Shown: positions 28,754-60,865, counted from the first letter of the stretch. The stretch is DNA of 64,000 nucleotides from Scenedesmus sp. PABB004 (GCA_014905635.1 JABVCE010000004.1:868001-932000); one strand, 5' to 3'. Numbers and translations: made by a program. Notes: a model not told the origin generated them from the letters alone.

Positions 28754-31221
28754 TCACTGTGCCGACTCGGGCAGCGAGCGCACCGAGAGGTCGCGCAGCA
28801 GGCTCTTCTTGGCGCCCGCGCCGCGCGGGCTGCCGGGCGCGCCCGCGCCGGCGCCGGCGCCGCCGGCCGCGGGCGTGAGCAGGCTCGCGAGCCCGCCGCC
28901 CGCGCCGCCCGCGCCGCCGGCGCGGCGCGCGGCGAGGGCGTCGAGGTCGTACCGCGCCCGGATGCTCGCGGCGATCACGCTCGGCGCCGGCGCCCCCGGC
29001 GCGGGCGCGGGGAAGTCGGCGCTGAAGTGCAGGCCGCGGCTCTCGCGGCGCTGCAGCGCGCAGCTCACGATGAGCTCCGCGACGGTCACCAGGTTGAGCA
29101 GCTCCACGAGCGGCGTGCTCACGCCGCAGCTGGACGCGAGGGACTTGACCTCAACGTACGCGGCGGCGAGCTCCGCCTGCGCCGCCTGCAGCGCCGCCGT
29201 GCGGCGCACGATGCCCGCGGCCTCCCACATCAGGCGCCGCACCTCGCCGCGCTTCGCGGCGACCCACGCCGCCGCCGCGGCGGGCAGCGGGCGCGGCGCG
29301 CGCGCGCCGCTGAAGTCGGCGGCCGCCGCCGCGGCGCGCAGGTGCGGCGCGCACGCGCGGGCCGCGTACTCGGCGTGCGCGACCGCCGGCCCCGCCGCGC
29401 GGTCGGCAAAGACCAGGCCCTCGAGGAGCGAGTTGGAGGCGAGCCGGTTGGCGCCGTGCAGGCCGCTGCACGAGACCTCGCCGCACGCAAACAGGCCCTG
29501 CACGCTCGTCTCGCCGCGCAGGCCCGCGACGACGCCGCCGCACATGTAGTGCTGCGCCGGCAGCACGGGGATGGGCTCCGCCGCGATGTCGATGCCCGCC
29601 GCGGCGCAGCGCTTGGCGATGTTTGGGAAGTGGGCCAGCACCTCGGAGCGGGGCTTGTGGCTGATGTCGAGCAGCACGTGCGGCTCGCGCCGGCTCTGCA
29701 TCTGGTCGGTGATCGCGCGCGCGACGACGTCGCGCGGCGCCAGCTCCAGGCGGTCGTCGTAGCCCGCCATGAACCGCTCGCCTGGCAGGCGCGGAGTGGG
29801 CGGGGCGGGCGCGGGCGCGAGGGAGGGGGTGAGAAGGGTGCGGGAAGGGCGGGAGGGGGGCGCGCGCGCCTGGCGCTGCCGGCGCGCCGCGCCGCCGCCC
29901 GCGCCGCGCGCGCTGCACGCTGCGGGGCGCGCACCGTCGAGGTTGGTCAGCCGCCCGCCCTCGCCGCGCAGCGCCTCGGTGATGAGGAACGTGCGCTCCG
30001 CGCCCGCGCGGCCGCCGGCCTCGGGCGGCGCGTAGAGCGCGGTCGGGTGGAACTGCACAAACTCCATGTTGGCCATCGCCGCGCCCGCGCGGTAGGCCAT
30101 GGCCATGCCGTCGCCCGTCGCGACGTGCGGGTTGGTCGTGGACGGGTACACCTGGCCTGCGCCGCCGGTCGCGAGCATCGTGGCGAGGCCCAGGAAGCGC
30201 ACGGCCGTGCCGGAGGCCTGGTCGAGCACGTCGGCGCCGAGGCAGTGCGGCGCGCCGCCGACCTCGTCGACGACCAGCTCGGTCGCGAGGTGGTGCTCGT
30301 GGAAGGTGATGCGCGGGTGGCGCCGCGCGGTCGCGAGCAGCGCGCGCTCGATCTCCGCGCCCGTGAGGTCGGCGGCGTGCACGATGCGGCGGTTGGAGTG
30401 CCCGCCCTCGCGCGTGAGGTGCAGGCTGCCGTCGGCGTTGCGCGTGAAGTCGGCGCCGAGCTTGACCAGCTCCAGCACGCGCGCGGGGCCCTCGCGGCAG
30501 ACCACCTCGACCGCGCTGCGCGGCGGGGCGGGACGGCGCGCGCGCGGCGGCGGGCGGGTGAGCGCGGACCGCGGGCGGCAGCGCGGGCGGCGGGCGCCGC
30601 GCGGCTGGCGCCCGCTGACGCTGCCTGCCGCTCCCTGCCGCCGCCCGCCCGCCGCCGCCCGCGTGCCGCCGCGGCGCACTTGCGATCGTTGAGGAAGGCG
30701 CCGGCGACGATCGTGTCCTCCACGTGCGCCTCAACGCTGTCGCTCGCGTCGAGCACCGCGCACACGCCGCCCTGCGCGTACTGGGTGCAGCCCTCGCCCG
30801 CGTAGTCCTTGGTGATCACCGCGACGGAGCCGTACTCCGCGACCTTGAGCGCGTAGGAGAGGCCCGCGATGCCGCTGCCGAGGACGAGGAAGTCAAAGTG
30901 CACGGCGGCGCCGCCGGCGGCGCTGCCGGCGCTGCGGCCGGCGGCGCTGCTGCTGCCGCCGGCGCGCCCGGCGCTGCCGGGGCTGCCCGCCGAGCCGTCG
31001 CGGCGCGGCCGCCGGAGCGAGTCGCCGCCGGCGCGCGCGGCCACAGCGCGGCGCGGCGGGCGCGGGCAGCTACTGCGCCCGGCGCCCGGCGCTGGCGCGG
31101 CGCGGGGCGCGGGGCCGGCCCGGGCGGCGCGTGGCGCGCCGCGGGGGCCCGGGGCTGGCGCGGGGCATGCCCACGCGGCGGCGCGGGGCGCGGCGAGGGT
31201 GGCGCGGGCTGCGTGCACCAT
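28754..31221 (-). CDS. nadB: L-aspartate oxidase with transit-peptide-like N-terminus, 3 exons
   Basis: FDFLVLGSGIAGL, YAQGGV, TREGGHSNRRIVHAADLTG, MEFVQFHPT, ELAPRDVVAR, HYMCGG, GLHGANRLASNSLLEGL and RRESRGLHF. Confidence 0.96.
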
Positions 31222-36100: not shown

Positions 36101-36856
36101 GCGGCGCGTGCCGATGTAGTTGCTGCGCAGCGTGTGCTGCACGTCGGCCTCGAGCTCGATGCTCGCCGCGGAGTGCACCACAAACTGCACGCCGCCCTGA
36201 ACCTTGGCCAGGTCGGCCGCGCTCAGGCCCAGGCCGTCGCTGTTCATGTCGCCCTCCAGCAGCTCCACCTGGCGGCGGAGGCGGGCGGCGCGGGCGGCGC
36301 GGCACGCGTCGGCCGCTGCCGCGCGGGCCGGCGCCGGCAGCGCGGGGACCGCCCGCCGGCTCCGCGGCGCGGCGCGGCGCACCTTGGCGAGCAGGCGGGG
36401 GCTGTCGCGCACGAGGTGGAACAGCCCGCTCTGCAGCAGGCGCGCGAGCCGCTCGCGCGCGCTCATGCCGCGCTTGCCGCGGATGAGGACGTAGACCTTG
36501 CCCACGTCCGTCGTGCGCAGCAGGCTCTCGATGAGCAGGCTGCCGATGTAGCCGGAGCCGCCTTTGGGTCGCGCGGCAGCGGCAGCGGCGGCGGCGCGCG
36601 TGCCGGCTCAGCGGCGCCGCTGATCGCGCCGCGGAGCAGCCAACCGCTGGAGTGTGCCGTGGCAGCGCGACACGCGTGCGCGTCGGCCCGGGCGCGCGGC
36701 GCGCTGGCACGGGAGCAAAGTGCCGGGCGCGCGCGCTGCCGCGCCTGTGATCATGACCGTGGCGCCGGCAAACTCGCGCTTGATGCTGTAAGTCGCCGCG
36801 GCCCCGCCGCCGTGCGCGCCAGCCGCGAACGGGCCCTCGTCAGCCGGCTGCGCCAT
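33163..36856 (-). CDS. FAR: Fatty acyl-CoA reductase (male-sterility/NAD_binding_4 family)
   Basis: TG|GSGYIGSLLIESLLR, VYVLIRGKRG, VVHSAASI, FVHVST|AYVN, catalytic PNTYTM|GK and IAIVRPALV. An alternative ATG lies at 36877. Stop at 33163. Confidence 0.92.
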
Positions 36857-37215
36857 CTGGTCCTCGCCTGCCGGCATGTGTCGCGGCCCACGGCGTGCTG
36901 CGTGCGTCGCTGGCAGAGGCGGTGCAGGTCAGCTGTCTGGCGCGTGTGCGGGCTAGCTGGGGCGTGTGCAGGCTGGCTGCAGGCTCGCTCGTTTTTGACG
37001 GCGCCCGCACCGCGCGGTTTGGGCCCGGCATGACCGCTTAGCGAGGAGCCCAACGCTGGCCACCGCACGGCGCATCGAGTGGCTCTGGCAACGTTTCGCG
37101 CCCCCGCGGCCGCACACCGCGCGCTCAACAGCCGGCGGCGCGCGGCGGCCCGCCGCGCGGGGGCGCCCTGCGCCCTCGGGGGCGCCCTGCGCTCTGGCGC
37201 CCTGCGCCAAGCGAC
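36585..37215. repeat. Segment A (FAR exon 1 plus upstream DNA); inverted copy at about 41188-41759
   Basis: Reverse-complement match with scattered substitutions and indels. Confidence 0.9.
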
Positions 37216-37237
37216 GCGGAGATCGACCGGCGCCTGC

Positions 37238-37883
37238 CCCGAGGCCTCCGGCGCGCAGCTCCCGAGCACGGGCGCGCTGCGCGGGGCCGATGCTGCGCGC
37301 GCCGGTGCCGCCGCGAGCGCCGCCGGTGCCGCCGGCGCTGCTGCCCTGCTGCGGCTGCTCGCCGCGGCGTGCGCGCAGCAGCGTACGCGATGTTTGCAGC
37401 AGCCGCGCGGTGTGGCGGGGCCCGCGGCTGCCCGCGTATTGCGACTGGTCGCGCACAAAGTTCTTTTAAACCGTCAAAGCCGCGAGCTGGCCGGCCGAGT
37501 CCCCGCCGCCTGCCGACCAGCCGCCAGCTCTCCTCCCCGCCCACCCGCCACGCGCGCGCGCCCGCGCCACGCCACGACGCGCCAGCGCCTCGGCCCCCGA
37601 CGCCGCAGCACGAGCGCGCCGCGTGTCGGGCCGCCACGTCGCCCGCGGCAGGCCGGCGGTGTGCGGCAGCGGGCGGCAGCCCGCGTGCGAGGCGCCCTCG
37701 CGCCACAACGCGTCAGCGATCTGCGCGGCCGCATGCGAGCGTGCCGGGCAGCTCGGCTGTGAACCCGGCGCCGCCGCGCAGCTTTTGGTGTCGCGTGGGC
37801 CGCCCGCCCGGCCACGAGCGGCGCGCCAGCCCGGTCGGCAACGCGGGGCGTTTGGCCTGCGCCGCGCGCTCCACGGCGCGGCG
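37238..37883. repeat. Segment B; inverted copy at about 41807-42469
   Basis: Near-identical reverse-complement match, e.g. GCACAAAGTTCTTTTAAACCGTCAAAGCC near 37453 versus its complement near 42225-42255. Confidence 0.92.
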
Positions 37884-38207
37884 TCGCCCGGCCCATGGCG
37901 TAGCGTGACATCAACGTGCGCGCGCGTGGGCCCAAGGTGGGGCCGCGCCGGGCGCTGCGTCGGGCGCTGCGGTGCCGGCTGCGCGCTGGGCGCGGGCCCG
38001 GCGCAGCGGCTGCGCGGCAGCGGCGCGGGCCCCCTGCGACAGACGTGCCGGACGCCGGGGAACTGCACCGAGCAGCGCGTGGGCTCGTGCCGCGAGCAGG
38101 CGCGCCGCCGCCGCCGCCGCCCGCAGGCGCGCGCTGGCTGGTCGCCCGCCGGGCGCGGCGCGGCCCGCAGCTCCTCCAGCTAGCGGTGGCAGCTCCTAGA
38201 GGTCCCC

Positions 38208-41017
38208 ATGGAGGCGGTCGGCGGCGAGGCGCGCAGCAAGCGCGCCACCAAGCGGCCGGCGTGGCTGCAGGACAACGTGGACCCTGCGTCGCCGGAGCTC
38301 GACGGGTGCGCCGGCGCCGGCCCCGCCGCAGCGCGCGGCGCAGCCAGGCCGCCAGCCAGGGCTGCGCGCCGACGCCGTCGCCGCCGTCGCCGCCGTCGCC
38401 GCCGCCGTGTCGCAGGGAGATGGGCCGCGCGCCGCGGCAGCAGCGGCGCAACGCCGACGGCGGCGCGCGCGCGCCGGGCGCGCGGCACGACGCCGGCGAG
38501 CGCGGCGGCGCGCGGGCGGCTGGGGCCGACCTGCCGCGCCGCATGTGCCTCAACCCGGGCTGCAAGAACCCGTTTGACTCGCCGCAGTGGCGCCGCGGCC
38601 CGCTGGGCCCGGGCACGCTGTGCAACGCGTGCGGCACGCGCTACGCGCGCATCGAGGCCAAGAAGCGCGGCGAGCGCCGGGTGCGGCCGCGCGGCCGGCG
38701 GCGTGGGCGGGGCGTGCGACGCGGGCGCGCGAGCGAGCGCCGACGCGCGGCGCGCCGCCGCTGCTGCCCGCAGGGCGGCAAGTCGCGGCCGGCCGACTGG
38801 CAGGCGTTTGAGCGGCAGCTGCAGCAGCCCGTGGACGCGGCGCGCGCGTGGGCGGCGCACGCGGAGCACGCCAGCAAGCTGGCAGCGCCGCGGCCGGCGC
38901 CGTCGCCCGCGGCCGCGCAGCGCAGCCTGGCGCTGCAGCAGCTGCAGGCGACCATCGCGCAGCACCAGGCGGCCCTGGACCGCTACACGAGCGCTGAGCT
39001 GTGGGGCGACGCTGACGACGCGGAGGAGGACGAGGAGGCGGCGGACGAGGGCGACGAGGGGCAGCCGCCCGCGGGGCATGGCGCGGCGCAGCAGCTGCAA
39101 CACGCGTGCCAGGACGCGCTGCCGCCCGGCAGCGGGCCCCACGCCGGGGGCGGCGCGGCGTGGCCGGCGCGCCAGGCGCCGCCGGGCGCGGGCGGCGGCA
39201 GCGCCGCCGGGGGCAGCCCGGCGGGGGCGCTCGACGACGCCGCGCGGCCGCGGCAGCGGCGGCGGCGCTGCGACGAGGACGCCAGCGACAGCCAGGAGGC
39301 AGCGGCGTGCAGCTACCAGGAGCCGCCCGCCGGCGGCGGCGGCGCCAGCAGCGGCGACCAGTTTCTGCACCTCCTGGCGGTCGGAGAGGCGATGATCAAG
39401 ACAGAGGGCGTGGCGCCGCAGGACCGGCGAGAGGCGTGGGCCGAGGTGCGGCGCAGGCGGCCGGCGGCGCGGCGGCGCGGCGGCGGCTGGGCGCGGCGCA
39501 GCGTGGCCCGCGCCCCAAATCGACGACCGCTCGCGCCAATAACCCCGGCCGCCCTGCCCGGCTGCGCTGCCCGCGCAGTTTGTGGAGAAGCAGCTGCCGG
39601 CTGACAAGAAGGAGGGCCGCCCGGACAGCGCCGGCGCGGCCGAGCGCCCGCCCTTTGCGTGCGAGGCGCAGGAGCCGCAGGTGGGCGCGGCCGGGGCGGC
39701 GCGCGGCCGCCGTGCGCCGCGCGCTCTGCGCTCACCCGCGCGCGCGCGCGCGCGGCTCCCCCGCAGGCCGAGGCGCCCGCGCCGGCGCCGGGGCAGGCCG
39801 GCGGCGGCGGGCAGGCCAAGGAGCGGCTGGACCGCTTTGAGCGCCTGCTGGCAGAGGCGGAGCAGTGCATCCGCGCGCGCAGCGCCAGCCCCCTGCTGCG
39901 CCCCATCACGCCAGCGACCGAGGCCGCGCTGGCGCGCGCCGACCAGGACGGCGCCGCGCCGGGCGGCGGCGGCGGCGGCGACCGCTCGCCCGCGCCGCGC
40001 TCGCGCCTCGGCGACGCGGGGCGGCAGGTCCACCACGGCTCGCTGCCGCCGCTGGTGCTGCCCGCGGCGGCCACGACCGTGTCCCTGGCCGCTGGCGCGG
40101 GGCCACCACCCGCAGGTGGGCCGCTCGGCAGCAGCGCGGGCGGCAGCCAGGGCGGTGGCGGAGCGAAGCAGGTGGGCACGGAGGGGTGGGGGTGCTGGCG
40201 GACGCCGGCGGACGGCCACCACGGCGTGCTTTGCGGCTGCGGCGTGGCGGGTGGTCGCGCCGGGGGCGCGAGCGGCCTCTGCCCAGCGGCCCGCCCGCCT
40301 GCGCGTGCAGCGCGGACAGGCGGGCGCGCCGACCCGGCCGCGACCAGCGGTGCCGCCCGTGATGGCTGACGCGCGCCGCGCCGCCCCGCCTCGGCCCCGC
40401 CGCAGGCGGCATGTGAGAGCCCGAGCAGCCAGCTGCTGCTGGCGAACGAGGTGCTGTCGCCAGCGACCATGGGCATGGCCAGGGCCCCGCTGGCGCCGGC
40501 GGAGCGCCTGCGGCGCCAGGCCGAGCAGGTGCAGCAGCTGCAGGCGCTGCTGGCGCCGCCGCCGCAGCCGCCCTGCGATGCAGCGACGCAGCCCGGCGCG
40601 GCGCAGGAGCAGGAGCAGCGGCCCCGGCCCTCGCAGCAGGGCGACGAGGCGGCGCTGCAGGACGACCTGCTGGCGCACCTCCGGCTCGTGCTGCAGGCGC
40701 CCGAGGCCGGAGCGCTGCTGGCGGCCTGCGTCGCCGCGCGCGCGCCCAGCGGCACGAACGGGCGCGCGCGCGAGCGGCTGCAGGGCCTGCTGGCGCGGCT
40801 GCGCGACGAGGTGGAGGGCCAGCGCAGCGCGGAGCTGGACGCGGCGCTCGAGCGGCAGCCCACCGACCCCGCGGTTGCCGACGCCTGGCGCTGGCTGGAG
40901 CAGGCCGACGCGGGCGCGAGCGGCAGCGGCGGAGCTGGCGGCGAGCAGCCGTGCTGCGGCGCGCAGCCGTGCGTGCAGCGAAGCGAGGCCACGGGCGCCG
41001 CAGCTGAACGGCCCTGA
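38208..41017 (+). CDS. GATA-type zinc finger transcription factor
   Basis: CLNPGCKNPFDSPQWRRGPLGPGTLCNACGTRY, in a multi-exon model running from MEAVGGEARSKR to the stop at 41015-41017. Confidence 0.85.
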
Positions 41018-41187
41018 GCGCGCCATAACCGAGGCTGTGTACCATCAACCAACGAGCACTTTTGCGGCATGGGGTTTTGCCACGCTTCGGCATCGTGCGG
41101 CGTGTGTGCTGCACTTGCATTTCACCGGTGCGTCGGCGGCGCGGTGTGTGGGTGCCGGCCTTGGCGCGTCCGTGTGTACCACCAGCA

Positions 41188-41759
41188 TCGCTTGGCAGGG
41201 CGTCACAGGCTCGAGGCGCCGCGCCGGCTGTTGAGCGCGCGGTGTGGGGCCGCGGGGGCGGGAAACGTTGCCACCGCCACTCGACGCGCCGCGCGGCGGC
41301 CAGCGTTGGGCTCCTCGCTAAGCGGTCACGCCGGGCCCAAACCGCGCGGTGCGGCGCCGTCAAAAAACAGGGACGCCCCAGCCCACCTGCAGCACACACG
41401 CCAGAAAGCTGACGCTCGCCGCCTCTTGCAGCGCCGCACGCAGCACGCCGTGGGCCGCGACACATGCCGGCAGGCGAGGACCAGATGGCGCAGCCGGCTG
41501 ACGAGGGCCCGTTCGCTGCTGGCGCGCGCGGCGGCGGGGCTGCGGCGACGTACAGCATCCAGCGCGAGTTTGCCGGCGCCACGGTCATGATCACAGGCGC
41601 GGCAGCGCGCGCGCCCGGCACTTTGCTCCCGTGCCGCCAGCGCGCCGCGCGCCCGGGCCGACGCGCACGCGTGTCGCGCTGCCACGGCACACTCCAGCGG
41701 TTGGCTGCTCCGCGGCGCGATCAGCGGCGCCGCTGAGCCGGCACGCGCGCCGCCGCCGC
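41188..41759 (+). pseudogene. Inverted copy of segment A carrying an orphan FAR first exon (about 41464-41597)
   Basis: MAQPADEGPFAAGARGGGAAATYSIQREFAGATVMITG is followed by a truncated intron 1 and no further FAR exons. Confidence 0.85.
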
Positions 41760-41806
41760 GGCCGCCAGACAGCTGACCTGCACCGCCCCCGCCGCCAGGC
41801 CAGGTG

Positions 41807-42469
41807 GCGCCGCGCCGTGGAGCGCGGTGGAGGCCAAATTTGTTTAAACGCCGCGTTGCCGACCGGGCTGGCGCGCCGCTCGTGGCCGGGCGGGCGGCCC
41901 ACGCGACACCAAAAGCTGCGCGGCGGCGCCGGGTTCACAGCCGAGCTGCCCGGCACGCTCGCATGCGGCGCGGCCGTGCCGCGCAGATCGCTGACGCGTT
42001 GTGGCGCGAGGGCGCCTCGCACGCGGGCTGCCGCCCGCTGCCGCACACCGCCGGCCTGCCGCGGGCGACGTGGCGGCCCGACACGCGGCGCGCTCGTGCT
42101 GCGGCGTCGGGGGCCGAGGCGCTGGCGCGTCGTGGCGTGGCGCGGGCGCGCGCGCGTAGCGGGTGGGCGGGGAGGAGAGCTGGCGGCTGGTCGGCAGGCG
42201 GCGGGGACTCGGCCGGCCAGCTCGCGGCTTTGACGGTTTAAAAGAACTTTGTGCGCGACCAGTCGCAATACGCGGGCAGCCGCGGGCCCCGCCACACCGC
42301 GCGGCTGCTGCAAACATCGCGTACGCTGCTGCGCGCACGCCGCGGCGAGCAGCCGCAGCAGGGCAGCAGCGCTGGCGGCACCGGCGGCGCTCGCGGCGGC
42401 ACCGGCGCGCGCAGCAGGGGCCCCGCGCAGCGCGCCCGTGCTCGGGAGCTGCGCGCCGGAGGCCTCGGG
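41807..42469. repeat. Segment B partner copy
   Basis: Reverse complement of 37238-37883. Confidence 0.9.
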
Positions 42470-44209
42470 CCAGGCGCGGGCGCCGTTGGCGCCCCGGCCT
42501 CGGACTGCAGGCCGCAGCCACTCCACCGCCGCGGCGGCCTGGTGCCCGGGCGCCAGCCTGGCCGCAGGCGCGGCGCGTGCGGGCGCCTGGCACAGTTGTT
42601 CAACGCAAAACGTCCCCAGCTCAGCGGCGACGTCGGGAGCGGGCAGCCCGTAGGAGCAGGCTGCCGGACGAGCAGACAGCTCCCTGGTGCCGGGCGGCAC
42701 GCCGCTCCGCCCCGCCAGCGCGCGCCGCGGTGCACGTGCAGGCAGCGCGCGGCGGCGGCGCGGCCGGCGGCGCGGCCGGCCGGGCGGGCGGTCGCACTGG
42801 CCCTGGGGTGTTGCGTGGCTGGCGCAGCGCGGCGACCGGTCGGCGGCGCGGCGCGCTGGGGGTCTGGGACTGCTGGCTGACTGTGTTTTGCACCCACCAC
42901 CCCGGTTGCGCCGCCCAGGGCTCGGCCGCACGGCCGCAAATCGCCGTGCATCGCCTGTAGAAGCTGTTGCGACGCCGCGTTGCGCCGGCGCACGCGTGTC
43001 ACTGGGCGCCGGAGGCCGTGGAGCGCTGCTGCGCCGGCCCGCCCGGCCGCCCGGGGCGTCCGCGGCCGCCGCGGCGCGCGCTCCGCGTACGTCGCCCGGC
43101 CCGCGCCTCCGTGCGCCGATCACGGGGCCCGCAGCGCCCGCGCGCGCGCCGCGAGAGCCCGTCGCGGGTTTAACCAGTCGTTGGCAGGCCGCGCCCCGTC
43201 TCGCTGCGCGCCGCTTATCGACCGGCGCCCCGCTCCCCTGCCCCCAGGGCGACCGCTTGACCGACCGGCATCCGGCGTGGTGCACCCCCGCCGCAGTCGC
43301 AGCCGCGCCCGGCGCGCCATCCCACCCGCGCCCACCCGGCGTTGCGCGTGGGCAGCCGCGCCCGCCCCGCGCCCGGCGAGAGGCGCCGGAGAGCGCGGAG
43401 GGAGTGTTTCTGGGCCCCCCAGGTGCGCCGGGGGCCCCGCCAGGCGCGCAGCGCCCATCTTCGAGCAGTTTGGCCAGCCCGCTCGGCTGGGCGGAGCGCG
43501 TGGAATTGGCGCCCCCGCGCGGTGCCGCGGGCGCCCGGACGGACCAGGCGGCGCCCGGGACGCCCCGGGCGGCGCCGCGGGGCTCGCCAGGGCGTGGCAC
43601 CCGAGGCCGCACCGTCACTTACCTCCCCACGCGCCGCCCCCCGCGCCACAGGCGGGCCGCAGCAACGCCCCGGACACGCGCACGCGACCTGGCGTGCCGC
43701 AGGTGAGGCGCCGCGGCGACGGGCGCGGCGCAGACGGGCGGGGCGGGCACCGGGCGCGAGAACAGTTGGGTGCGCAGCCCAGCCAGCAGCAGCAGCCCCG
43801 CGCGGGAGCCCTCCCGGCGCGGCCGGTACCGGCCGGCGCGCAGGCCGCGGCGCGGCGCGGGCGGGCGGCGGGGCGAGCAGCGCCCCCGCGCCACCCTGGC
43901 CAGCAGCAGCACACGGCTGCGCCAGGGGCCCTGGGCAGCCCGGAGGCGCGAGGGACGCTTGAATGGGACCGCCCAGCGGCGCCGCTGCGGCCGAGCGCGG
44001 CGCGGGGCCGGCGCTGGCGCGGGGGGCGCGCCATCGACCGCCCCGGGCTGGCCAGGACAGCAGGGCGGGCGCCCGGGCTGGCCCGGCTCGCCAGCGGCCC
44101 GCCGAGCTCACCCCGCGCGCCGCCTTGCGAGCTCACCCCGCGCCCCCCCGCGCGCCGCAGGGCGTGAGCACCGCAGCAGCTCGCTGGGCCAGCAGCGCCG
44201 GTCGGCGCG

Positions 44210-47200
44210 ATGGCTGGCTCAGACGCCCCGATGAGCCCCAACCTCAAGCCCATCGCCACGCGGCCGCGCGGCTCGGGCGGCGCCGACATGGAGGCGCCGT
44301 CGCCGCCGAGCTCGAGCGGCGTCGTCACGCCGAAGGGCCGCGGCGCGGGCGAGGTGCACAGCGACAGCCCCGGCATGGGCTCCGACTCGTCCAGCCCCTG
44401 GCGCCGCTTCTTCCGCGGCGGCAGCCGCTACCCGGCGAGCGACGTGGACAGCTACGGCAACAGCCCGCGCAACCTCATGGGCTTTAGCCCCAAGGCCACC
44501 AGCAGCGCGAGCGCGAGGTGTGTGCGCGCGCGCGCGCCGCCGGGCGCGCAGCAGCGCCGCAGCAGCGGCGGCGACGGCAGCGGCCGCGCCGGCAGCGGCC
44601 GCGCCGGCAGCAGCGGCCGCGCTGGCTGCGGAGGGCAGCGGCAGCAGCAGCACCGGCGGCGGCGGCGGAAGGGCCCGGCGGCGACATGCGCGCGCGCGCG
44701 CGCGCGCATCGCCGCGCCCGCCCGCGGCTCACCGCCCGCGCCGCCCGCCGCGCGCGCGCAGCCGCGTGAGCACGCCGGTGAAGCGCAAGAACCGCGACCA
44801 CCTCGGCGGCGGCGGCGGCGGCGGCCGCGGCGAGGGCTACGGGGGCGGGCAGATCAACGCTTACCCGCCCGCCGCGGCGGGGCACCCCGCGGCGGTCGCG
44901 GGCATGATGAGCCTCGCGGAGGAGCTGCTGACCAAGAAGGGCCTGTCGCTCAAGAACCTGCAGGTGCGAATGATGATGCGCCGCGCGGCCGCGCGGGCGG
45001 GCGGGCGCGCGGGCGGCGGCGGCGCCGCGCGGCGGGGAGAGGAGGGACGGGCCGCGCCGCGCTGTGCGCGCGCGCGCGCGGCGCCTTGCCGCTCGCCCCG
45101 CCGCTCGCCGCACGGCTCACCCCGCCGCGCGCCCGCCAGGAGGACACGGAGGAGTACGCCGAGACGGGCGAGAAGGCGGCGATCCCGAAGCACAAGCGCC
45201 CGGTGACCAAGCACTGGAACTGGCTCGGCCTCGCGATCTGCCTCTACTACGTCGCCGCGGCGATCTACTACTTTGTCATCCGCGCGACGCGCACGCTCAA
45301 CATGGGATACATGGGGTGAGCGGGACGGCCCGCCCGCGCGCCACGCTGCGCGCGCAAGGGAGCCAGCCGGCGGGCGCCTGCCAGGCGACTGGGGGCCAGC
45401 GGAGGCGTGCCGGGGCGTGTCGGGGCCGCGCCGGTTTGGGGACGGGCGGCGCGTGTGTGCGCGCGCGCCCGGCGCTGACGCCCGCCCGCCCGCCCGCCCG
45501 CTCGCTCCTGCTGTGCCCGCGTGTCGCAGCTACGGTGTGCTGGTGCTGCTGATCGAGATTGTGTCGTCGACGGCGACGTTTGGCTACGCGATCCTGCTGA
45601 TCAAGTACAGCAAAAGCCGGCGAACCAAGGGCCTGCCCATACCCAAGAAGGGCCAGCAGCCCGACCTCGACAACCTCAAGTTTCACGTCCGCGTGCTCAT
45701 CCCCTGCTACAAGGAGAGCATGGAGCTCGTCAAGCTCACCGTGCTCGGCGCGCTCAAGGCGCCGCTGCCCAAGGACACGCTGCGCACGGTGCGGCCTCCT
45801 CGCGCGGCCGGCGCGGCGCGGCGCGGCGGGGGCCGGCGCGCGCGCCGCTGCTGCCAGCAGCCGCCGGCGGCGCGCCGAGCCCGCCGCCCGCCGGTCTGCG
45901 TGCGCGCGCGCAGGTCTACCTGTGCGATGACGGCAAGGACCCGACCAAGGAGGAGATGGTCCGCGAGCTCAACGCGGAGTGGGGCTGCCTCGAGTACGTC
46001 GCGGGCCGCAAGCGCGACCCGTCGGGCGAGACCAACGGCAAGTCCAACAACCTCAACCACTGCCTCAAGAACGTCATCTACAAGGACTACTACCCCATGA
46101 ACGCGAGCGGGCCCAAGATCCCCAAGAGCGAGGTCATGGTCGTCTTTGACGCCGACATGGTCGCCAAGCCCAACTTCTTCACCAAGGCGCGCCCCGCCGC
46201 CGCAGCCCGGGCAGCCGCGCCGCCGCGAGCAGCCGCGGCGCCGCGCCGGCTGCCGCAGCCGCGCCGGCAGCCGCCGCCGCCGCACGCGCAACGCCTCACC
46301 CCGCCCCGCGCCCGCCTGCCCGCCCGCCCGCCTGCCCGCCTGCCCTCCTGTTTGCCCGCAGATCCTGGAGGTCATGGTCGACGACGACGTCGCGCTCTGC
46401 CTCACGCCCCAGGGCTTCAACAACGTCGACGCGCAGAGCGACATCTTCAACAACCTCAACCTCTCCTTCTGGGAGTACATGCTTCCCGGTGCGCACGCCG
46501 CCCGCGTTGCGCGCGCTGCGTGCTGCTTGTCTTGCGCCGCGCGCGCGCCCGCCGACCCCGCGCGCCGCCCGCCGACCCCGCGCGCCGCCCGCCGACCCCG
46601 CGCACCGCCCGCCTCGCGCCTGCTGCCCGCTCCAGGCACCGACGCGCTCGGGTACATCGCGTGCACGGGCACCAACTTCTGCCTGCGCTGCTTCCCGCTC
46701 GCCGACTGCGGGTGGTTCCCGACGTTCACCATTACCGAGGACTACGCGCTGGGCATGATGCTCAAGGCCAAGGGCTACAAGGCCGGCTACCTCAATGAGT
46801 ACCTCGCGATCGGCGAGGCGCCCGAGGAGATCCGCAACATCTTCCGCCAGCGCTCGCGCTGGTGCAAGGGCCAGATGCAGGTGCTGTTCAGCAGCTACTG
46901 CCCCCTGCTCGACACCGGCCTCACGCTCGGCATGCGCCTGCTCTACACGAGCGTCACGTGGTGCTACGTCACAAACACCTTTGCCGTGCCCTGCAGCGTG
47001 CTCGTGCCCTTCATCGCGCTCGTGTTTGGCGTGTACCCGCTCGTGCTCAACCGCGACTTTGCGCTCGCCGCGACGCTCTACTACACCAGCTCCACGCTCG
47101 TCACGATGGTGCGCGCGCCCCGCGGCGCTGCTGGCCCGCGCCCGCGCCCCCGCTGCGCTGCAGAGACCCGCGCGCCGCGCCGCGCCGGCGGGTCGCGCGC

Positions 47201-49994
47201 CGCCTGCCCCGCGCCGACCGCCGCGCCGCGCCCGCGTTGCCCCGCGCAGTACTGCACCAACCGCAAGCACATGAAGCCGCTGTGGTTCTGCATCGTCTCG
47301 TGCCACCTGCTGTGGTTCACGTTTGCGAAGGCGCAGCTCAACGTGCTGTGGAAGAAGATCACCAAGAAGACGGTCGTGTTCAAGTCGACCAAGAAGAAGG
47401 GCGAGGACGACGGCCGCGCGGGCAAGAAGAAGCGCCGCTTCTGCGCGGTGCCCCAGAACGTCGGCGACATGGAGGGCACGCTCGACGCGTGGGTGCTCGT
47501 CGCGAGCTTCAGCATCAGCATGATCACCGCCATCGTGGGCGCGTTTGGCATCATCGACAAGCCCTACACCGCGCAGGGCGACTTCAGGTGGTTCCTCGCG
47601 CTCTCCATCTTCTGGTCGATCTACAACATGATCCCGCCCGCCCTCTTCATCTTCTACTGCTACAACAAGGGCCAGCTCTTCGAGGACTTCTGCTCCTTCT
47701 GCATGACCCTCAGCTTCCTCGTCGGCATCGGCGGCATCGTCTGCACCTGGCTCGTGCCCGGTGCGCGCGCCGCCGGCCGGCCCCCGCGCGCGCCGTGCTG
47801 CGCCGCGCGCTGCGCGCGCGTGCGGCCCCCGCCAGCAGCCAGCCACAGCCTCGGCCGCCGGCGCCGCGCGCCACCCCGCGCTCACCCCGCCCCGCGCGCC
47901 CTGCGCCGCCGCCCGGCAGATGACTACAACCTCGGGCAGGTGCTCAACGTGTCGCTGCAGTTCTTCGAGGCCCAGCGCTCCGGCAAGCTGCCGCGCATCA
48001 GCAACACGCCGTGGCGCGGCAACTCGGGGCTGTGGGACAGCGTGCTGCTGCCCAACGGCAAGAACTACAGCCTGCTCGGCGGCTGGTACGACGACGGCGG
48101 CATGCTCAAGCTCTCCTACACGACCGCGTTCACCGTGTCGATGCTCAGCTGGGCGTACTACGAGTTCAAGGGCGGCTACCGCTCGAGCGGCAACGTCGAC
48201 TTTGGCGCCAACACCATCCGCTGGGGCGCCGACTACCTGATGAAGGTCAGCGTGACCAACATCACCAGCGCCGGCGCGACCATGCAGCCCATCTTTGTCG
48301 CCCAGGTGCGGGGGCAGAGAGGGCGGAGGGAGGGAGGGAGGGAGGGAGGGAGGGAGGGAGGGAGGGAGAAGGAGGGAGGGAGATGGGAGGCGAGAGGCCG
48401 CACGCGCGCTGGGGCGGGGCCGGGGCGGGGCACAGCGCGCACAGCGCCGCGCACAGCGCCGCGCCGCGCGCCGGCGCCGACCCCCTGCTGCCTCGCCCGC
48501 GCCGCCTGCCTGGCCCAGGTCGGCGACATGGCCAAGGACAAGCTCTACTGGGGCTCCCCCGAGCGCTCCACGATCGCGCGCCCCGCGACCTACCTCAGCG
48601 CCGCGCGCCCGGGGACCGACGCGATGGCGATGGCCTCCGCCGCGCTCGCGTCGGCCGCGGTCGCGATCCAGGACGAGTCGCTGCAGGTCGCGGACGTGTA
48701 CCTCCAAAAGGCGATCGTGCTCTACCAGCTCGCGCAGCGCTGGCGCGGCTACTACGCGCGCTACGTCGAGAGCGGCAAGATGTACCCCTCCGTCTCCATG
48801 TACGACGACCTCGCGTACGCGGCGGTGTGGATCTACATCGCGACGGGTGACGAGAACTACCTCAACGACGCGCTCGTCTTCTACGACCAGACCGTGTCGG
48901 CGGAGGGGCACGTCAACCCCAACCCCTACATGTTCAACTACGAGAACGTCGTCCCCGCGCTCGACCTGCTGCTCTACCAGGCCACCGGCGACGCGTTCTA
49001 CAAGAAGAATGTCCAGGCACGCGCGGGGCGGGGGGGGGGGGGGGGGGCGGCGCTGGGCGGGCCGCTGCGGGGCGCTGCGGGCTGGCCGGGCGGTCCAGGG
49101 CGGCCGGGGCCGGGGCTGGCCGGGGCCTGGGGCTGGGGCTCTCCCGCTGCGCGCCGCGCCGCCCGCCCCGCCTGCGCGCCCCCGGGCCAGCGCCTGAACT
49201 AACCCGCCGCCGCCGCCCCGCGCCCTGCGCCCCGCCTCGCGCGCGCGCAGGACTTCGTCAAGGAGTGGATGAACACCAAGTCCAAGACGGGCGACATCTT
49301 TTACACCAACAAGAACCTCGCCAAGGCCTACCCCTACGGCACGCTGCAGCACACCGCCAACGCCGCGTTCTACACCATGGTCGCCGCGAAGAACGTGATG
49401 GACTCCAAGTTCATGCTCTACGCCTGCTGGGCGCGCAACCAGATCGGCTACATGCTCGGCGACGCGGGCCGCTCGTACGTGACCGGCTACGGCGCGGTGC
49501 AGCCGATGAAGACGCCGCACAAGGCCGCGTCGTGCCCGCCCGTGGACGTGACCGACTGCACGTGGGAGAGCGCGTACTACACGACCGACCCCAACTACAA
49601 CCCGCTGCGCGGCGGGCTCGTGGGCGGGCCGGACGACGCCGACGCGTGGGCGGACGACCGCGATATGAACAACCCCGCCAACACCGTGAGCCTGCTCAAC
49701 AGCGCCGGCTTCAGCGCGGCCATGGCGGCGCTCGTCGACCGCGACATCAACATGGTGCGCCGCGCGCACGCACGCAAATCACGCACAGCACAGCACCGCG
49801 CAGCACGGCGCCGCGCGGCGCGCGCGCGCGAGACGGCGGGCGGGCGCTCACGCCCCGCGCGCCCGCCGCGCCGCGTCGCTCCTCGCGCCACGCAGGCCAA
49901 GTGCCAGCAGGGCAACGGCTTCATCCAGACGCTCATGCTCAAGGCACGCGGCCAGCCCGACGCGGCGGGCCAGCGCTGGTGGGAGGGCGTGTGA
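44210..49994 (+). CDS. Cellulose-synthase-like processive GT2 fused to a C-terminal GH9 (endoglucanase-fold) domain; 12 exons, about 1271 aa
   Basis: Exons 44210-44517, 44762-44963, 45140-45315, 45530-45788, 45914-46186, 46362-46488, 46636-47108, 47250-47760, 47920-48305, 48519-49016, 49251-49754 and 49896-49994 join in frame (3816 nt). GT2 motifs: DDG, KSNNLN, DAD, TED, QRSRW. GH9 motifs: FFEAQRSGKLP, LLGGWYD, YDDLAYAAVW, QIGYMLG, SYVTGYG, GGLVGGP. Confidence 0.92.
48325..48367. repeat. (GGGA)n microsatellite in an intron
   Basis: About 10 tetranucleotide units. Confidence 0.85.
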
Positions 49995-50499
49995 GCGCGC
50001 AGCGGAGGCGCGGCGCCAACGCCAGCGCCGGCGCGCCGGCGCGGACGCGCGCGCCGGAGTGTGCAGGCAGGAGGAGGGGCGCGCGCGCTGCAGCCGCCCC
50101 GCGAGCGCATCGCATATATGCGCTCGCGCCACGCCACCCAGCGCCCGGCAGGCCGGCCTGTGCTGCCTGCCGCACGCGGCGCGCCCGGCGGCGGGGGCGG
50201 GGGCTGCAGCGCGGCGCGGGACGCGCGCGCCCTGCGGCGCGCGCAGGAGGAGCAGCAGGGCTCGCGGCATGGTGTCCCGCGGAGGGGAGGGGCTGGCTTG
50301 GCCGGGGCTCGGGCCCGGGGCGGGGCGGCAGGAGGGGCGGGCCTGGTCTGCGGAGCGAGCGGCGGCCGTGCCCGCTCGGTGAGAGTTGGTCACCTCCACA
50401 CATAACGAGCTCGAGCTCGCCGAGTGTGACGTCGACGGCGGCAGGGGCGGCAGGCCCCGCCGCCGCTGTTTGGTTGCTGTGTCGGCGCGCCGCCGCAGC

Positions 50500-50556
<57 letters not shown>
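50500..50556. repeat. (GCG)n microsatellite
   Basis: About 18 triplets downstream of the GT2-GH9 gene. Confidence 0.85.
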
Positions 50557-53759: not shown

Positions 53760-54137
53760 CACGCCCTGTCCAAGATCAAGCTCGGCGGCGTGCTCGTGGA
53801 GTCGCACGAGCAGCAGGGGGCGAGCGGCAGCGCGCGGCCCGGCCCCTCGCCCGCTGCCGGCAGCCCCGTGCCGGGGGACAGCGCCGCCGCGACCGACGGC
53901 AGCGCGCGGCCGGCCGCCGCTGCGACGCGGCGGCCCAGCAAGGCGCGGCTTCTGCGCAGCGGCAACGTCTTTTCACTGTCGCCACTGAACGTTTTTGGGG
54001 TTTACTGCGGCTTTGACAACTTCTACGGCAGCCGGCTCGAGGTCTGGGCAGAGTCCGAGTGCCTCCTGTTCTGCTGGCCGATGAAGAGCCTGGAGCACAT
54101 GGCGACGTGCTGCAGCCCCTCCATGGCGGTGTGAGTG
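53760..54137 (+). repeat. Direct duplicate (about 378 bp) of 55456-55833, a partial exon of the downstream gene
   Basis: Near-identical at an offset of 1696 bp; I saw about 3 substitutions. Confidence 0.95.
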
Positions 54138-54387
54138 ACCCGAGCGGGCGCCACGCCGCGCCCACCAGGCCGCCGAGAGCCGAGGGAGCCTGGCCCGGGG
54201 CGGCAGCAGCAGCCCGGCATTCGCCCTCGCCGCGCGCGGTGGGCGCACGCGAGAGCCACGCCCGCGCGGCTGTGAGTCGGCGAGCTCCACGCGGACGATT
54301 TCCGCGCGGCGACAGGGGCAGGGGCGCCACTCACTGGCCGCCGCAGCAGCGGCGTGCTGCTGCTGCTGCTGACCTCGGCCAGACCTG

Positions 54388-56702
54388 ATGATTTACGTCA
54401 CCGCCGGTCCCTGGGGCACCCTGGCGTCACTGTTCTTCTTCATGGCGGCCGTGTTAGGTGGCGACCTCCTGCTCCTGCGCGCGGCTCTCGCGATTGCTTA
54501 CCTGTGGCTGTTTGTGAACGGCGCCACGGGCCTGCCGTCCTGGCCGCACGCCGCGCACCCCGGCGTGATGAGCGTGAGCTGCGGCGTTGGCGGCAGCCTG
54601 GCCCCGCGGCGGCCGCTGCGGCGTCGACTGGCCCGCTCAGCGCGCCGCGCCGCTGCCGCGCCGCTGCCGCTGCCGCTGCCGCCGCCCGCCGCGCAGCTCG
54701 ACATGATGTGCTGGGCGGTTGTGTCGGGCGGGCTGCACGCGTGCGCGGTCGCGCGCATGCTGCTCGACGAGCTGCCCGTGCGCTTTGCGACCGAGGACGA
54801 GCGCCAGCTCGCGCGCTTCCTCAACCGCCGCAGCGGCATGGAGCCGCTCGAGGCCCGGGTGCGCCCGGGCGCCACGCCGCGCGGCGGCGGCCCCGGCGCC
54901 GGCAGCCGCCGCGGCGGGCCGCGCCGCGCTGAGCGCGCCGCGCTGAGCGCGCCGCGTGCAGGAGGTCATCCAGCGCGGCCACTGGGTGCGCGTCGCGGCG
55001 GGCGAGCGCGTGCTCGCGAGCCACGAGGTGCGCGCCGGGCGCCACGGGCCGCGGCCGCGTCGCCGCCGCGGCCGCCGCCGCCGGCCTGGGCGCGGCCGCA
55101 GCACGCGCGCGCACGCACGCGCGACGCCGCGGCGCGCATGCAGATCTACCAGCGCGTGTTCCTGCTGGTTGACGGCATGGTCAGCATGGACAACACAGGC
55201 TGCTGCGGCGACGCCGACGCCTCGCACCACCACTCGTCAGCCGCCGGCTCGCCCGACGCCTCGCACCACCACCACTCGCGGCCGCTCGCCTCGACCGACA
55301 GCACGGGGCGCACGCGGCCGCCGGCGGCCGCGGAGCAGCAGCCTGGCGGCGGCGGCGACAGCGGGGCGCCGGGGTCGCTGCAGGCGCTGGAGCTGCCGGA
55401 GGCCAGCTTCAGCAGCCCGATGTCGTTCACCCTCGTGCGCGCGGTGTCGCTGGAGCACGCCCTGTCCAAGATCAAGCTCGGCGGCGTGCTCGTGGAGTCG
55501 CACGAGCAGCAGGGGGCGAGCGGCAGCGCGCGGCCCGGCCCCTCGCCCGCTGCCGGCAGCCCCGTGCCGGGGGACAGCGCCGCCGCGACCGACGGTAGCG
55601 CGCGGCCGGCCGCCGCTGCGACGCGGCGGCCCAGCAAGGCGCGGCTTCTGCGCAGCGGCAACGTCTTTTCACTGTCGCCACTGAACGTTTTTGGGGTTTA
55701 CTGCGGCTTTGACAACTTCCACGGCAGCCGGCTCGAGGTCTGGGCAGAGTCCGAGTGCCTCCTGTTCTGCTGGCCGATGAAGAGCCTGGAGCACATGGCG
55801 ACGTGCTGCAGCCCCTCCATGGCGGCGTGAGTGGTTCGCGCGGGCGCCGGCGCCGCCATCGTCCCGCGCCGCCTGCGCCGCCGCGGCCCACGCTCACGCT
55901 CGCGCGCTCATGTGCCCGCCCGCCCGCCCGCCCGCCCGCCCGCCCGCCCGCCCGCCCGCCCGCCCGCCCGCCCGCCCGCCCGCCCGCCCGCCCGCCCGCC
56001 GCCCGCCCGCCCGCCCGCCCGCCCGCCCGCCCGCCCGCCGCCCGCCCGCCCGCCCGCCCGCCCGCCCGCCCGCCCGCCCGCCCGTGCTGCCGCCGCCGCA
56101 GCTACTGGCGGTCATTCGTTCTGTACACCGTCGCCTCCGAGTTTGAGCTCAAGGCACACCGAGGCATGAAGCTCTCACGGTGGGCGCCGCGGCACCGTGG
56201 CACAATCACCGCCCGCGCCGCCTGTGCCGCCTGCGCCGCCGACGCCCGCACGCCCCCGGGCCGCCGCCGTGCCGCGCAGGTGCTCCACGGGCGAGTACGA
56301 GCACGCCGGCTGGCTCATGGGCGGCCGGTCGCGGGACTTCACCGACCCGCTCCGAAGCTACGAGGTCCCCGAGCGCCGCAGCCTGGCGCGGCTGTGCCGC
56401 TGGCTGCGCCGCGCCGCGTCCCCCTTCCAGCCGCGCGGCATGCGCCACACGTGCGCCCCGCGCCGGCGCGGCGCGGCCTGCCCCGCTGGCAGTCGCCTCG
56501 CGCCGCCGCGGCCGCCCCCCCCCCCCCCCGCCACCGACGCCGCCGCCCGTGCCGCAGCGCGCTGCCGCTGACCGGTGTGATGGCGCGCACGCGTGCCGTG
56601 ATCAGCGCGGAGGCCAAGGCGCAGGCGGCGCGCAGCCGGGACGTCAGCTTGCACAGCGGCGGCGGCACGGCGGCGGCGGCGGCCCGCGAGGGCATCGCTT
56701 GA
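54388..56702 (+). CDS. Popeye-like membrane protein with a cyclic-nucleotide-binding-like fold
   Basis: Three N-terminal hydrophobic helices (LASLFFFMAAV; DLLLLRAALAIAYLWLFV; MMCWAVVSGGLHAC), then EDERQLARFL, GHWVRVAAGERVL, RVFLLVDGMV and VWAESECLLFCWP. The start is uncertain. Confidence 0.6.
55914..56083. repeat. (CCCG)n microsatellite, about 170 bp, in an intron
   Basis: About 40 units with two short interruptions. Confidence 0.92.
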
Positions 56703-60032: not shown

Positions 60033-60865
60033 GGCGGCGGCGGCGCGGCGGCGGCGGCGGCGGCGGCGAGAGCGCGGCGCGGCAGCAGCGGCAGCAGCAG
60101 CAGCGCCCGGAGCGGCAGCAGCAGCCCGCCGCGACGCTGCTGACGCTGCGGCCCGCGCCGGGCGCGCCGCCGGGTCCGCGGCCGGGGCGGCCGGCGCTCG
60201 TCGTGAGCAGCACGAGCTGGACGCCGGACGAGGACTTTGGGCTGCTGCTCGACGCGGCGCTCGCGTACGACGCCGCGGCGGCGCGCGCGCCGGCGGGGAC
60301 CTACCCCGACGTCGCCTTCATCATCACCGGCCGCGGCCCGCAGCGCGACGCGTACCTCGCGCGCGTGCGGCGCCTGCGCCTCGCGCGCGTCGCGTTTGCG
60401 AGCCTCTGGCTCGAGCCCGAGGACTACCCCGCCCTGCTCGGCGCGGCCGACCTCGGCGTCTGCCTGCACACGTCGTCGTCGGGGCTCGACCTGCCGATGA
60501 AGGTCGTCGACATGTTTGGCGCCGGCCTGCCCGTCTGCGCGGTCGACTACCCCGCCATCACCGAGCTCGTCGCGCCCGGGCGCACCGGCCTGCTCTTCAC
60601 GTCCGCGGAGCAGCTCGCGCGGCAGCTGCTCGAGCTGCTCGCCGGCTTTGGCGGCGGCGCCGGCGGCGGCGGCGGCAAGCTCGCCGCGATGCGCGCGGCC
60701 GTCGCCGAGGCGCACGGCGCGTGGCGCTGGGACGACAACTGGGCGCGCGTCGCGGGGCCGGTCTTTGCCGACGCAGCGGCGGCGCGCGGGCTGTGCGCTG
60801 CGGGCGCTGGCGCCGGCGGCGGCGGCGGCGGCGGGCGCGAGGGGGTGCAGAAAAAGGCGGCGTGA
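59275..60865 (+). CDS. ALG1: Chitobiosyldiphosphodolichol beta-mannosyltransferase; apparent frameshift in a GGC repeat near 60001-60070
   Basis: VVVLGDFGRSPRMQYHA, MQNPPAIP and VDWHN lie in one frame. VSSTSWTPDEDF and GVCLHTSSSGLDLPMKVVDMFG lie in another. Confidence 0.93.

Follow-up and report, generated by a model that had tools for sequence, protein, structure and literature searches.

A BcsA-like synthase fused to a conserved, probably non-hydrolytic GH9-fold domain in the green alga Scenedesmus sp. PABB004

Introduction

The terminal complexes with which core chlorophytes make cellulose differ from the plant rosette. In the bacterial synthase BcsA, the gating loop is followed by two helices and the C-terminus is cytosolic; the plant glucanase KORRIGAN is a separate type II membrane protein with a catalytically competent domain of glycoside hydrolase family 9 (GH9). 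Here we describe a gene of Scenedesmus sp. PABB004 in which a cellulose-synthase-like domain of glycosyltransferase family 2 (GT2) is followed, in the same reading frame, by a GH9-fold domain. The gene lies at 44210-49994 on the + strand of a 64,000-nucleotide (nt) stretch of DNA (GCA_014905635.1 JABVCE010000004.1:868001-932000), which we refer to as the window and whose first letter is position 1.

Two published systems come close to this architecture. Tunicate CesA has a C-terminal GH6 domain that is missing a catalytic Asp and is regarded as functionless, according to the available portions of PMC10334666. For the green alga Coccomyxa (C-169), Blanc et al. (2012) reported that cellulose-synthase-like domains carry attached GH9 domains, connected the gene family with the Calcofluor-positive, cellulase-sensitive Coccomyxa wall, and described the algal GT2 domain as highly similar to the tunicate one (PMC3446292); the available portions of that article do not mention a loss of GH9 catalytic residues. 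The fusion also goes unmentioned in the corresponding portions of PMC4981690, PMC7570368, PMC3499364, PMC11096116 and its preprint, PMC8618704, PMC10762512 and PMC5977491. Within the partly accessible literature that we searched, which lay outside subscription journals, we found no paper characterising core chlorophyte cellulose synthases and, with supplements likewise outside its scope, no characterised GT2-GH9 member.

The gene joins this known, biochemically uncharacterised chlorophyte GT2-GH9 family, which is an obvious candidate for the core chlorophyte cellulose synthase. We think it fairly probable that its product is a BcsA-type beta-1,4-glucan synthase with a conserved, probably non-hydrolytic extracellular GH9-fold module. 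What we add to the earlier description is not the fusion but the conserved loss of the GH9 acid/base residues and the parallel that this creates with tunicate CesA.

Results

A single gene model spans both domains

We built the exon model on the + strand of 44210-49994 from splice signals and reading frame. From a start ATG at 44210 to a stop TGA at 49992-49994, 12 exons splice in frame into 3816 nt that encode 1271 amino acids (aa) with no internal stop, in agreement with the original prediction, which had been made from the DNA of the window and had called 12 in-frame exons and about 1271 aa. It had also placed a phase-1 intron at the junction between the two domains, where we find the same phase at the same coordinates.

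44210-44517, 44762-44963, 45140-45315, 45530-45788 (+): exons 1-4
45914-46186, 46362-46488, 46636-47108, 47250-47760 (+): exons 5-8
47920-48305, 48519-49016, 49251-49754, 49896-49994 (+): exons 9-12
47761-47919 (+): intron 8, the GT2/GH9 junction; GT-AG, phase 1, 159 nt, open in frame

The GC content is 0.66 in the exons and 0.87 in the introns, GC at third codon positions (GC3) of the coding exons reaches 0.97, and the same exons stand out in a crude codon-usage scan. Nine of the 11 introns are GT-AG and two are GC-AG, a detail absent from the original prediction. Introns 6, 7, 8 and 9 (147, 141, 159 and 213 nt) are all multiples of three and contain no in-frame stop, so that a single open reading frame (ORF) of 1033 aa (46101..49202) runs from exon 6 to exon 10 even without splicing. 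The window has a GC content of about 78% throughout (0.70-0.83 in 2-kb windows), and 43800-50400 holds 65 ORFs of at least 40 aa, including one of 1160 aa on the antisense strand (46296..49778, -). At this GC content, with such long spurious ORFs, open frames and ORF length alone mean little.

The database relatives, numbered P0001 and so on, bear more directly on the model. P0001, the best of them, is a complete 1265-aa ORF predicted from the transcriptome assembly of a close relative. It is identical to our product at 1164 of 1263 aligned residues (92%), from the first Met to the last residue, and has the identical spliced junction CTWLVP/DDYNLGQVLNVSLQFFEAQRSGKL (CTWLVP/DDYNLGQ). When P0001 was searched against the window by tblastn, its residues 1-1265 fell on 44210-49991 and there was no other match in the window. 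A second transcript-derived complete ORF, P0004 (1224 aa), likewise fuses GT2 and GH9, and the junction motif W-LVP-DY--GQVL is kept in most of 12 fused relatives, with P0015 and P0016 diverging. The GH9 part has its first Met at aa 838 and no signal peptide; its sole anchor is the last helix of the synthase. The spliced model, the Pfam matches and the P0001 junction thus confirm the direct GT2-GH9 link that had been proposed, with no stop, new start or signal peptide in between. Judged from the relative's transcript ORF, which provides the basis for the splicing, GT2 and GH9 are one gene, taken to be a nuclear gene of a chlorophycean alga, and one multi-pass membrane polypeptide.

Two features of the introns and flanks are recorded here for completeness. 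The GC-AG introns are those at 46187-46361 and 49017-49250, with donors GCGCGC and GCACGC and no frame-keeping GT close by. Tandem repeats in the gene and its surroundings are short GC-rich arrays only, confined to introns and flanks; they include a (GGAG)14 microsatellite in intron 9 (48325-48382) and a perfect (GCG)19 run at 50500-50556, about 500 nt 3' of the stop codon.

The synthase part resembles BcsA

45914..47108 (+): exons 5-7, GT2 catalytic core followed by transmembrane (TM) helices TM3 and TM4 (Pfam, motifs, matches to solved structures)

The protein retains the whole GT2 motif set: CDDG, DADM, CTGTNF, TED, QRSRW and FKSTKK. DDG starts at 45926, DAD at 46148, TED at 46734 and QRSRW at 46848, exactly where they had been reported, and CTGTNF is present as well. 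The gating-loop motif FKSTKK (aa 650-655), which the original prediction had also named, reads F-x-x-T-x-K, without the Val of FxVTxK. By Pfam, exon 7 matches the GT2 family PF13632 with an expectation value (E) of 4.8e-13 and Cellulose_synt PF03552 with 24.9 bits against a cut-off of 24.7. TED recurs in 34 of 44 aligned fused rows; seven fragments have a gap there, and three rows (P0016, P0029, P0039) have different residues.

For the comparison of the GT2 part with solved structures, the query was P0001 (92% identical) and not the window's own protein. With this query the nearest entries are Rhodobacter sphaeroides BcsA (R. sphaeroides; 5ej1, E 6.3e-22; 4hg6, E 8.1e-22), and Escherichia coli (E. 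coli) BcsA follows with E 7e-14 for the P0001 GT2 part; the matches to plant CesA and CslF6 are far weaker (E 8e-5 to 6e-3), with plant CesA chains at E 2e-4 to 6e-3. By its motifs and these matches, we take this part to be a processive BcsA/CesA-type GT2 with all catalytic motifs kept.

Its control appears to differ from that of both bacterial and plant enzymes. Neither the Pfam scan of the exons nor the precomputed Pfam domains of the fused relatives contain PilZ (PF07238), which the bacterial matches P0184, P0188 and P0189 do carry, and control by cyclic di-GMP is therefore unlikely. There is also no Cys in the N-terminal ~190 residues, which leaves no room for a CesA-type RING zinc finger. 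A BcsA-like core with neither PilZ nor zinc finger is presumably regulated in another way.

The GH9 fold is kept and its catalytic residues are replaced

47920..49754 (+): exons 9-11, GH9-fold domain with degenerate catalytic motifs, aa 776-1238 (Pfam PF00759, GH9 alignments)
aa 834-837: canonical GGWYDAGDHVKF (8u49, 8ihw, 3wc3) is GGWYDDGGMLKL here (DAGD to DDGG)
aa 912-913: canonical DH is DK here
aa 1160-1162: canonical PHHR is TPHK here (HHR to PHK)
aa 1215-1217: canonical (H/S/R)NEVAxDYNAG is ANTVSLLNSAG here (NEV to NTV)

Together, exons 9-11 match positions 3-443 of the 444-position Pfam profile PF00759 (E 1.9e-29, 2.2e-26 and 1.2e-25), and P0001 matches the solved enzyme 1ks8 with E 2.7e-76. 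The claim of a full GH9 domain therefore stands as far as the fold is concerned, which is full length, but fails at the active site, where the catalytic Glu and one catalytic Asp are gone. We read the catalytic motifs from high-posterior alignments of exons 9 and 11 to 8u49, 8ihw, 3wc3, 1ks8, 4zg8 and 8ihy, assigning motifs to catalytic residues by what we take to be their roles from work on Thermobifida fusca (T. fusca) Cel9A and Clostridium thermocellum (C. thermocellum) CelD. ANTVSLLNSAG lines up with HNEVATDYNAG in 1ks8, SNEVACDYNAG in 4zg8 and RNEVANDYNAG in 8ihy. Thr stands in place of the general acid Glu, and Gly (G837) in place of the second Asp of DAGD; the DH histidine, the first histidine of HHR and the DYN motif have been replaced as well. 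The name GH9 endoglucanase, under which the domain had been introduced, is not borne out, given the first two of these changes in alignments to solved GH9 enzymes.

Replacement of the acid is widespread in the family. In the acid column, Glu is found in six of the 44 fused rows (P0016, P0023, P0026, P0031, P0045, P0054), another residue in 32 and a gap in six. By comparison, in a set of 100 stand-alone GH9 domains drawn from the searches behind the fused set, 89% have Glu in this column: 80 keep both DAGD and the Glu, nine the Glu only, one DAGD only, and ten neither. Conservation among stand-alone GH9 domains reaches 80% or more in 111 columns. Our protein has the conserved residue in 88 of these and departs from it in 23, catalytic and neighbouring residues among them.

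The changed residues are themselves conserved. Across the 12 closest relatives, P1160 and N1221 are found in all 12, Q1104 in 11 and G837 in ten. Identity to our protein in the GH9 part and the GT2 core, respectively, is 0.94 and 0.94 for P0001, 0.84 and 0.84 for P0008, 0.75 and 0.67 for P0004, and 0.76 and 0.58 for P0005. Since GH9 is conserved as much as the GT2 core or more, and its replacements are fixed, the domain looks like a remodelled, functional module and not like one in decay. With the acid Glu and the second Asp lost, it most likely does not cut, and we regard it as something other than a canonical endoglucanase, probably non-hydrolytic.

Predicted topology places the GH9 domain outside the cell

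44210..45140 (+): exons 1-2 and start of exon 3, Ser/Pro/Gly-rich, Cys-free N-terminal region of ~190 aa
45140..45788 (+): exons 3-4, TM1 (aa 197-217), TM2 (aa 229-253) and start of cytosolic GT2 (Kyte-Doolittle)
47250..47760 (+): exon 8, amphipathic helix, gating loop and three TM helices ending in CTWLVP
49896..49994 (+): exon 12, 32-aa tail AKCQQGNGFIQ...GQRWWEGV and stop codon (12-homologue alignment)

TM1 and TM2 have Kyte-Doolittle peaks of 2.12 and 1.88, and directly after TM2 there are seven Lys or Arg residues against one Asp or Glu. Hydropathy further shows two strong helices at aa 544-586, a weaker amphipathic, IF3-like segment at about 614-636, and three helices after the gating loop (aa 684-708, 719-744, 751-775) that run directly into GH9. 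The gating-loop region (aa 640-700) contains 14 Lys or Arg residues. Together with the structural model described below, this amounts to eight predicted hydrophobic helices.

The structural model is an AlphaFold2 (AF2) model of the homologue P0005, computed from an 18-sequence alignment (mean predicted local distance difference test score, pLDDT, 79.4; predicted template-modelling score, pTM, 0.76). It has the same order of a disordered loop, three long helices and GH9. Foldseek aligned the GT2 and TM part of the model with BcsA (4p00_A, 640 columns) and with poplar CesA8, and its GH9 part with a termite endoglucanase (1ks8; template-modelling score 0.93, root-mean-square deviation 2.6); no solved chain in that search spans both GT2 and GH9 (query score at most 0.35). 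Because the gating loop is followed by a third helix, where BcsA has two, the GH9 domain would come to lie on the outer face of the membrane. Such a location fits with the three N-x-S/T sequons in the GH9 part (aa 786, 825 and 890) and with a conserved Cys pair, ASCPP...DC, common to animal secreted GH9 enzymes.

At the other end of the protein, a block SSPWRRFFRGGSRYP...SPRNLMGFSPKA (SSPWRRFF...SPRNLMGFSPK) in the N-terminal region is conserved in P0001, P0008, P0007, P0010 and P0012 and is common to relatives down to ~50% identity. Scanning of exons 1 and 3 gave no Pfam match for this region, and the matching part of the P0005 model has pLDDT below 50. We predict it to be cytosolic and disordered, and it may have a phosphoregulatory role in place of the bacterial PilZ control. 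The exon-12 tail, also without a Pfam match, is identical at 31 of 33 positions to P0001 and at 29 of 33 to P0005, and its pattern KCxQGNGxIQ...RWWEG is kept in nearly all fused relatives.

The gene belongs to a chlorophyte family with varying catalytic motifs

A first search for relatives gave 21 matches, a profile search with 18 fused proteins gave 43 at E <= 1e-20, and an exhaustive representative search with P0005 gave 7518 proteins at E <= 0.001, most of them with GH9 or GT2 on its own. GT2 and GH9 occur together in 33 of 169 collected proteins, and in 43 after the added profile search. Named carriers are Tetradesmus obliquus, Raphidocelis subcapitata, Monoraphidium neglectum, Monoraphidium minutum (M. 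minutum), Trebouxia sp. C0006, Chlamydomonas sp. UWO 241, Chlamydomonas euryale (C. euryale), Haematococcus lacustris and Bryopsis sp., and thus cover Chlorophyceae, Trebouxiophyceae and Ulvophyceae; in the databases they are labelled 'hypothetical protein', 'cellulase' or 'six-hairpin glycosidase'. Of the named relatives, that of Raphidocelis subcapitata (Sphaeropleales) is nearest, at 79% identity, which compares with 92% for P0001 and 68% for the Tetradesmus protein. With 43 database proteins carrying both domains, and the Coccomyxa fusion in print since 2012 in the available portions of PMC3446292, the novelty that had been claimed for the fusion itself does not survive.

Members vary in which catalytic motifs they keep. 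Both sets are intact in P0023, which is full length, and in P0026 and P0054, which are N-terminally incomplete. The window's gene and most other fused proteins have an intact GT2 set and a degenerate GH9 set. The mirror image, with intact GH9 motifs (DAGD and Glu) and degenerate GT2 motifs, is found in P0016, from Bryopsis, and in P0031: TED has become GE- and QRSRW has become EHSTW in P0016, and in P0031 DAD has become GAS and QRSRW has become DRKHW.

In a GT2 tree, our protein falls in a set of 14 rows, 12 of which are fused, and fused and GT2-only rows interleave across the tree (eight changes). The tree was built with a 'quick' method and no bacterial outgroup and contains three long branches (P0016, P0031, P0039). 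For these reasons, and given the interleaving, it tells us neither whether the fusion arose once nor in which order the losses occurred.

Neighbouring genes and repeats

Elsewhere in the window we recognised the following exon fragments:

1859-2050: 2-oxoacid dehydrogenase acyltransferase (E2)
17767-18834: RING/ZNF598-like
20304-20480: YgbB (methylerythritol phosphate, MEP, pathway)
30667-30963: FAD-binding oxidoreductase
36389-36595: fatty-acyl reductase-like NAD_binding_4
60380-60634: GT1
61471-61713: centriolar SAS-6

The neighbouring genes are housekeeping genes unrelated to GT2-GH9, as is usual for a eukaryote, and the mix fits a flagellate-derived green alga. We considered these neighbours, including the genes with Cys-rich FGFR repeats, as functional context and rejected them as unrelated. 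Two genes of the Cys-rich FGFR/GLG1 type (PF00839), at 11883-13053 (-) and 22127-24193 (+), lie about 10 kb apart in inverted orientation, and the exon pair 11883-12107 and 23337-23567 has a near-identical stretch of ~50 aa in common, which suggests an inverted duplication. Downstream of the GT2-GH9 gene, 53934-54143 (+) and 55645-55833 (+) encode two copies of nearly the same 60-aa peptide, LLRSGNVFSLSPLNVFGVYCGFDNF..., and are AT-rich for the window; the one copy scanned had no Pfam match, and the pair may be a repeat element.

A codon-usage scan gave no coding signal on either strand of 36600-44200, the ~7.6 kb 5' of the gene, where we saw short GC-rich arrays only. Either a long intergenic or promoter stretch or a gene with different codon usage could account for this.

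Discussion

We propose that a cytosolic, BcsA-like GT2 domain free of PilZ would polymerise UDP-glucose into a beta-1,4-glucan, most likely cellulose, and thread the growing chain through the synthase's own transmembrane channel. The third helix after the gating loop would then tether the GH9-fold module at the outer face, where this module, with its cleft mostly kept but its acid/base residues lost, may bind or guide the emerging chain without cutting it, for instance in chain ordering, microfibril assembly or oligomerisation. In this scheme we infer how the protein sits in the membrane, which polymer it makes and what part it has in the wall, as well as the binding role of a GH9 module that does not cut. 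The original prediction saw in this protein a self-contained synthesis machine, an idea that may still hold with a binding or guiding module; the fused cutter that formed part of it does not fit with the loss of the GH9 acid Glu and Asp.

Several points weigh against our proposal. The activity loss is read from sequence alone, and the adjacent Asp in DDGG could act as base, just as another acid could substitute for the lost residues. Ten of the 100 stand-alone GH9 domains also have neither motif, so that motif loss is not unique to fusions. Because P0023, P0026 and P0054 keep both catalytic sets, cutting is maybe ancestral and some activity could persist. The extracellular position of GH9 follows from a topology that is predicted rather than measured, and the modelled fold is that of the 68%-identical homologue P0005, with its 18-sequence alignment, and not that of the window's protein. 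The splicing is supported by a relative's transcript and by sequence logic only. Finally, cellulose as the product follows by analogy from the likeness to BcsA and from the usual substrate of GH9.

How far do these points favour another explanation? The domain could be an active endo-beta-1,4-glucanase, in effect a KORRIGAN or BcsZ built into the synthase, trimming or releasing the GT2 product. In favour of this, the GH9 fold is full length with 88 of 111 conserved positions kept, the first Asp of DAGD remains with a second Asp adjoining it (DDGG), and the six relatives that keep DAGD and Glu (P0016, P0023, P0026, P0031, P0045, P0054) make hydrolysis plausible as the ancestral state. However, the acid Glu is Thr in our protein and something other than Glu in 32 of 44 fused rows. 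The second aspartate of DAGD is replaced too, as are the histidine of DH, the first one of HHR, and DYN. In T. fusca Cel9A, an inverting GH9 enzyme, loss of the acid Glu reportedly comes close to abolishing activity, which likewise speaks against cutting. The parallel GH6 domain of tunicates is, in the available portions of PMC10334666, regarded as inactive, and overall we consider an active glucanase distinctly improbable. A more elementary objection is that adjacent GT2 and GH9 genes could seem joined simply because a GC-rich genome has few stops. Spurious long ORFs are indeed common on both strands at 78% GC (the antisense 1160-aa frame at 46296..49778 is one), the annotation of some database relatives gives GT2 or GH9 alone, and the fusion in the window's organism is read from genomic DNA, with RNA from elsewhere. 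Against this, the transcript-derived complete ORFs P0001 (1265 aa) and P0004 (1224 aa) cover both domains, the junction is conserved in most of 12 relatives, and the coding signal (GC3 of 0.97, exon versus intron GC) tracks the 12-exon model. A separate GH9 gene would also have its first Met only at aa 838, would lack a signal peptide and would depend for anchoring on the synthase's last helix, and several of the GT2-only relatives are fragments from ~5-kb contigs that adjoin fused ones in the tree. Such an artefact we find scarcely credible.

The nature of the polymer is a different matter. GT2 could make another beta-linked polymer, such as a mannan, a glucomannan, a mixed-linkage or beta-1,3-glucan or a chitin-like chain, with the GH9 cleft adapted to it. 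GT2 motifs do not fix the donor or the linkage, the Pfam GT2 families matched are generic, with Cellulose_synt passing at just 24.9 bits over a cut-off of 24.7, and residues of the GH9 cleft are systematically changed. There are also relatives in two genera associated with mannan, Bryopsis, whose wall reportedly holds this polymer, and Haematococcus. On the other side, beta-1,4-glucans are the main substrates of GH9 enzymes, the solved GT2 proteins that come closest are all cellulose synthases, with BcsA nearest by sequence and cellulose synthases again by Foldseek, and CTGTNF, TED, QRSRW and FxxTxK are of the cellulose-synthase type. The available portions of PMC8618704 report mannan in the Haematococcus wall, and those of PMC3446292 link the Coccomyxa family to a Calcofluor-positive, cellulase-sensitive wall. 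We regard a polymer other than cellulose as unlikely, and return to a cellulose synthase with a guiding GH9 module as the reading we prefer.

If GH9 guides rather than cuts, the protein would offer a simple one-protein system for the roles that KORRIGAN and BcsZ play in cellulose synthesis, and a so far uncharacterised cellulose synthase of core chlorophytes would be identified. P0023 with both catalytic sets, the window's gene with the synthase set only and the Bryopsis type with the hydrolase set only would then form a natural subfunctionalisation series. A possible use lies in engineering the algal walls that hinder product extraction in Sphaeropleales and Haematococcus.

Among known systems, the other chlorophyte GT2-GH9 proteins are closest: they have the same order of N-terminal GT2, TM helices and C-terminal GH9 in one ORF and show no difference in kind, members varying in which domain keeps its catalytic motifs. 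BcsA (4hg6/4p00/5ej1; 7lby) works by the same logic of D, DxD, TED, QxxRW and an FxVTxK-type gating loop. It differs from our protein in having PilZ, in having two helices after the gating loop against the three seen here, which would put the C-terminus outside, and in working with BcsZ, an active GH8 glucanase on a polypeptide of its own. Plant CesA with KORRIGAN, the class A membrane-anchored GH9, is alike in that, where the chain is made, a processive synthase works with an extracellular GH9 domain tethered to the membrane. CesA is, however, a distant match only, its RING zinc finger is absent here, and the GH9 of our protein, unlike that of KORRIGAN, is fused and without the acid Glu.

Tunicate CesA, as published descriptions portray it, resembles our protein in combining a bacterial-type GT2 with a C-terminal hydrolase-fold domain that misses a catalytic residue. 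It differs in that this domain is GH6 and not GH9, a family for which the Pfam scan of our exons gave no match, and in being an animal gene of presumed bacterial origin. It is tempting to speculate, though we hold the idea tentatively, that a pseudo-glucanase at the synthase exit arose in the algae independently of, yet parallel to, the dead tunicate GH6. If so, the two would point to a general rule by which the single-subunit cellulose synthases of eukaryotes depend on a cleft of glucanase shape at the mouth of the channel for ordering chains into microfibrils.

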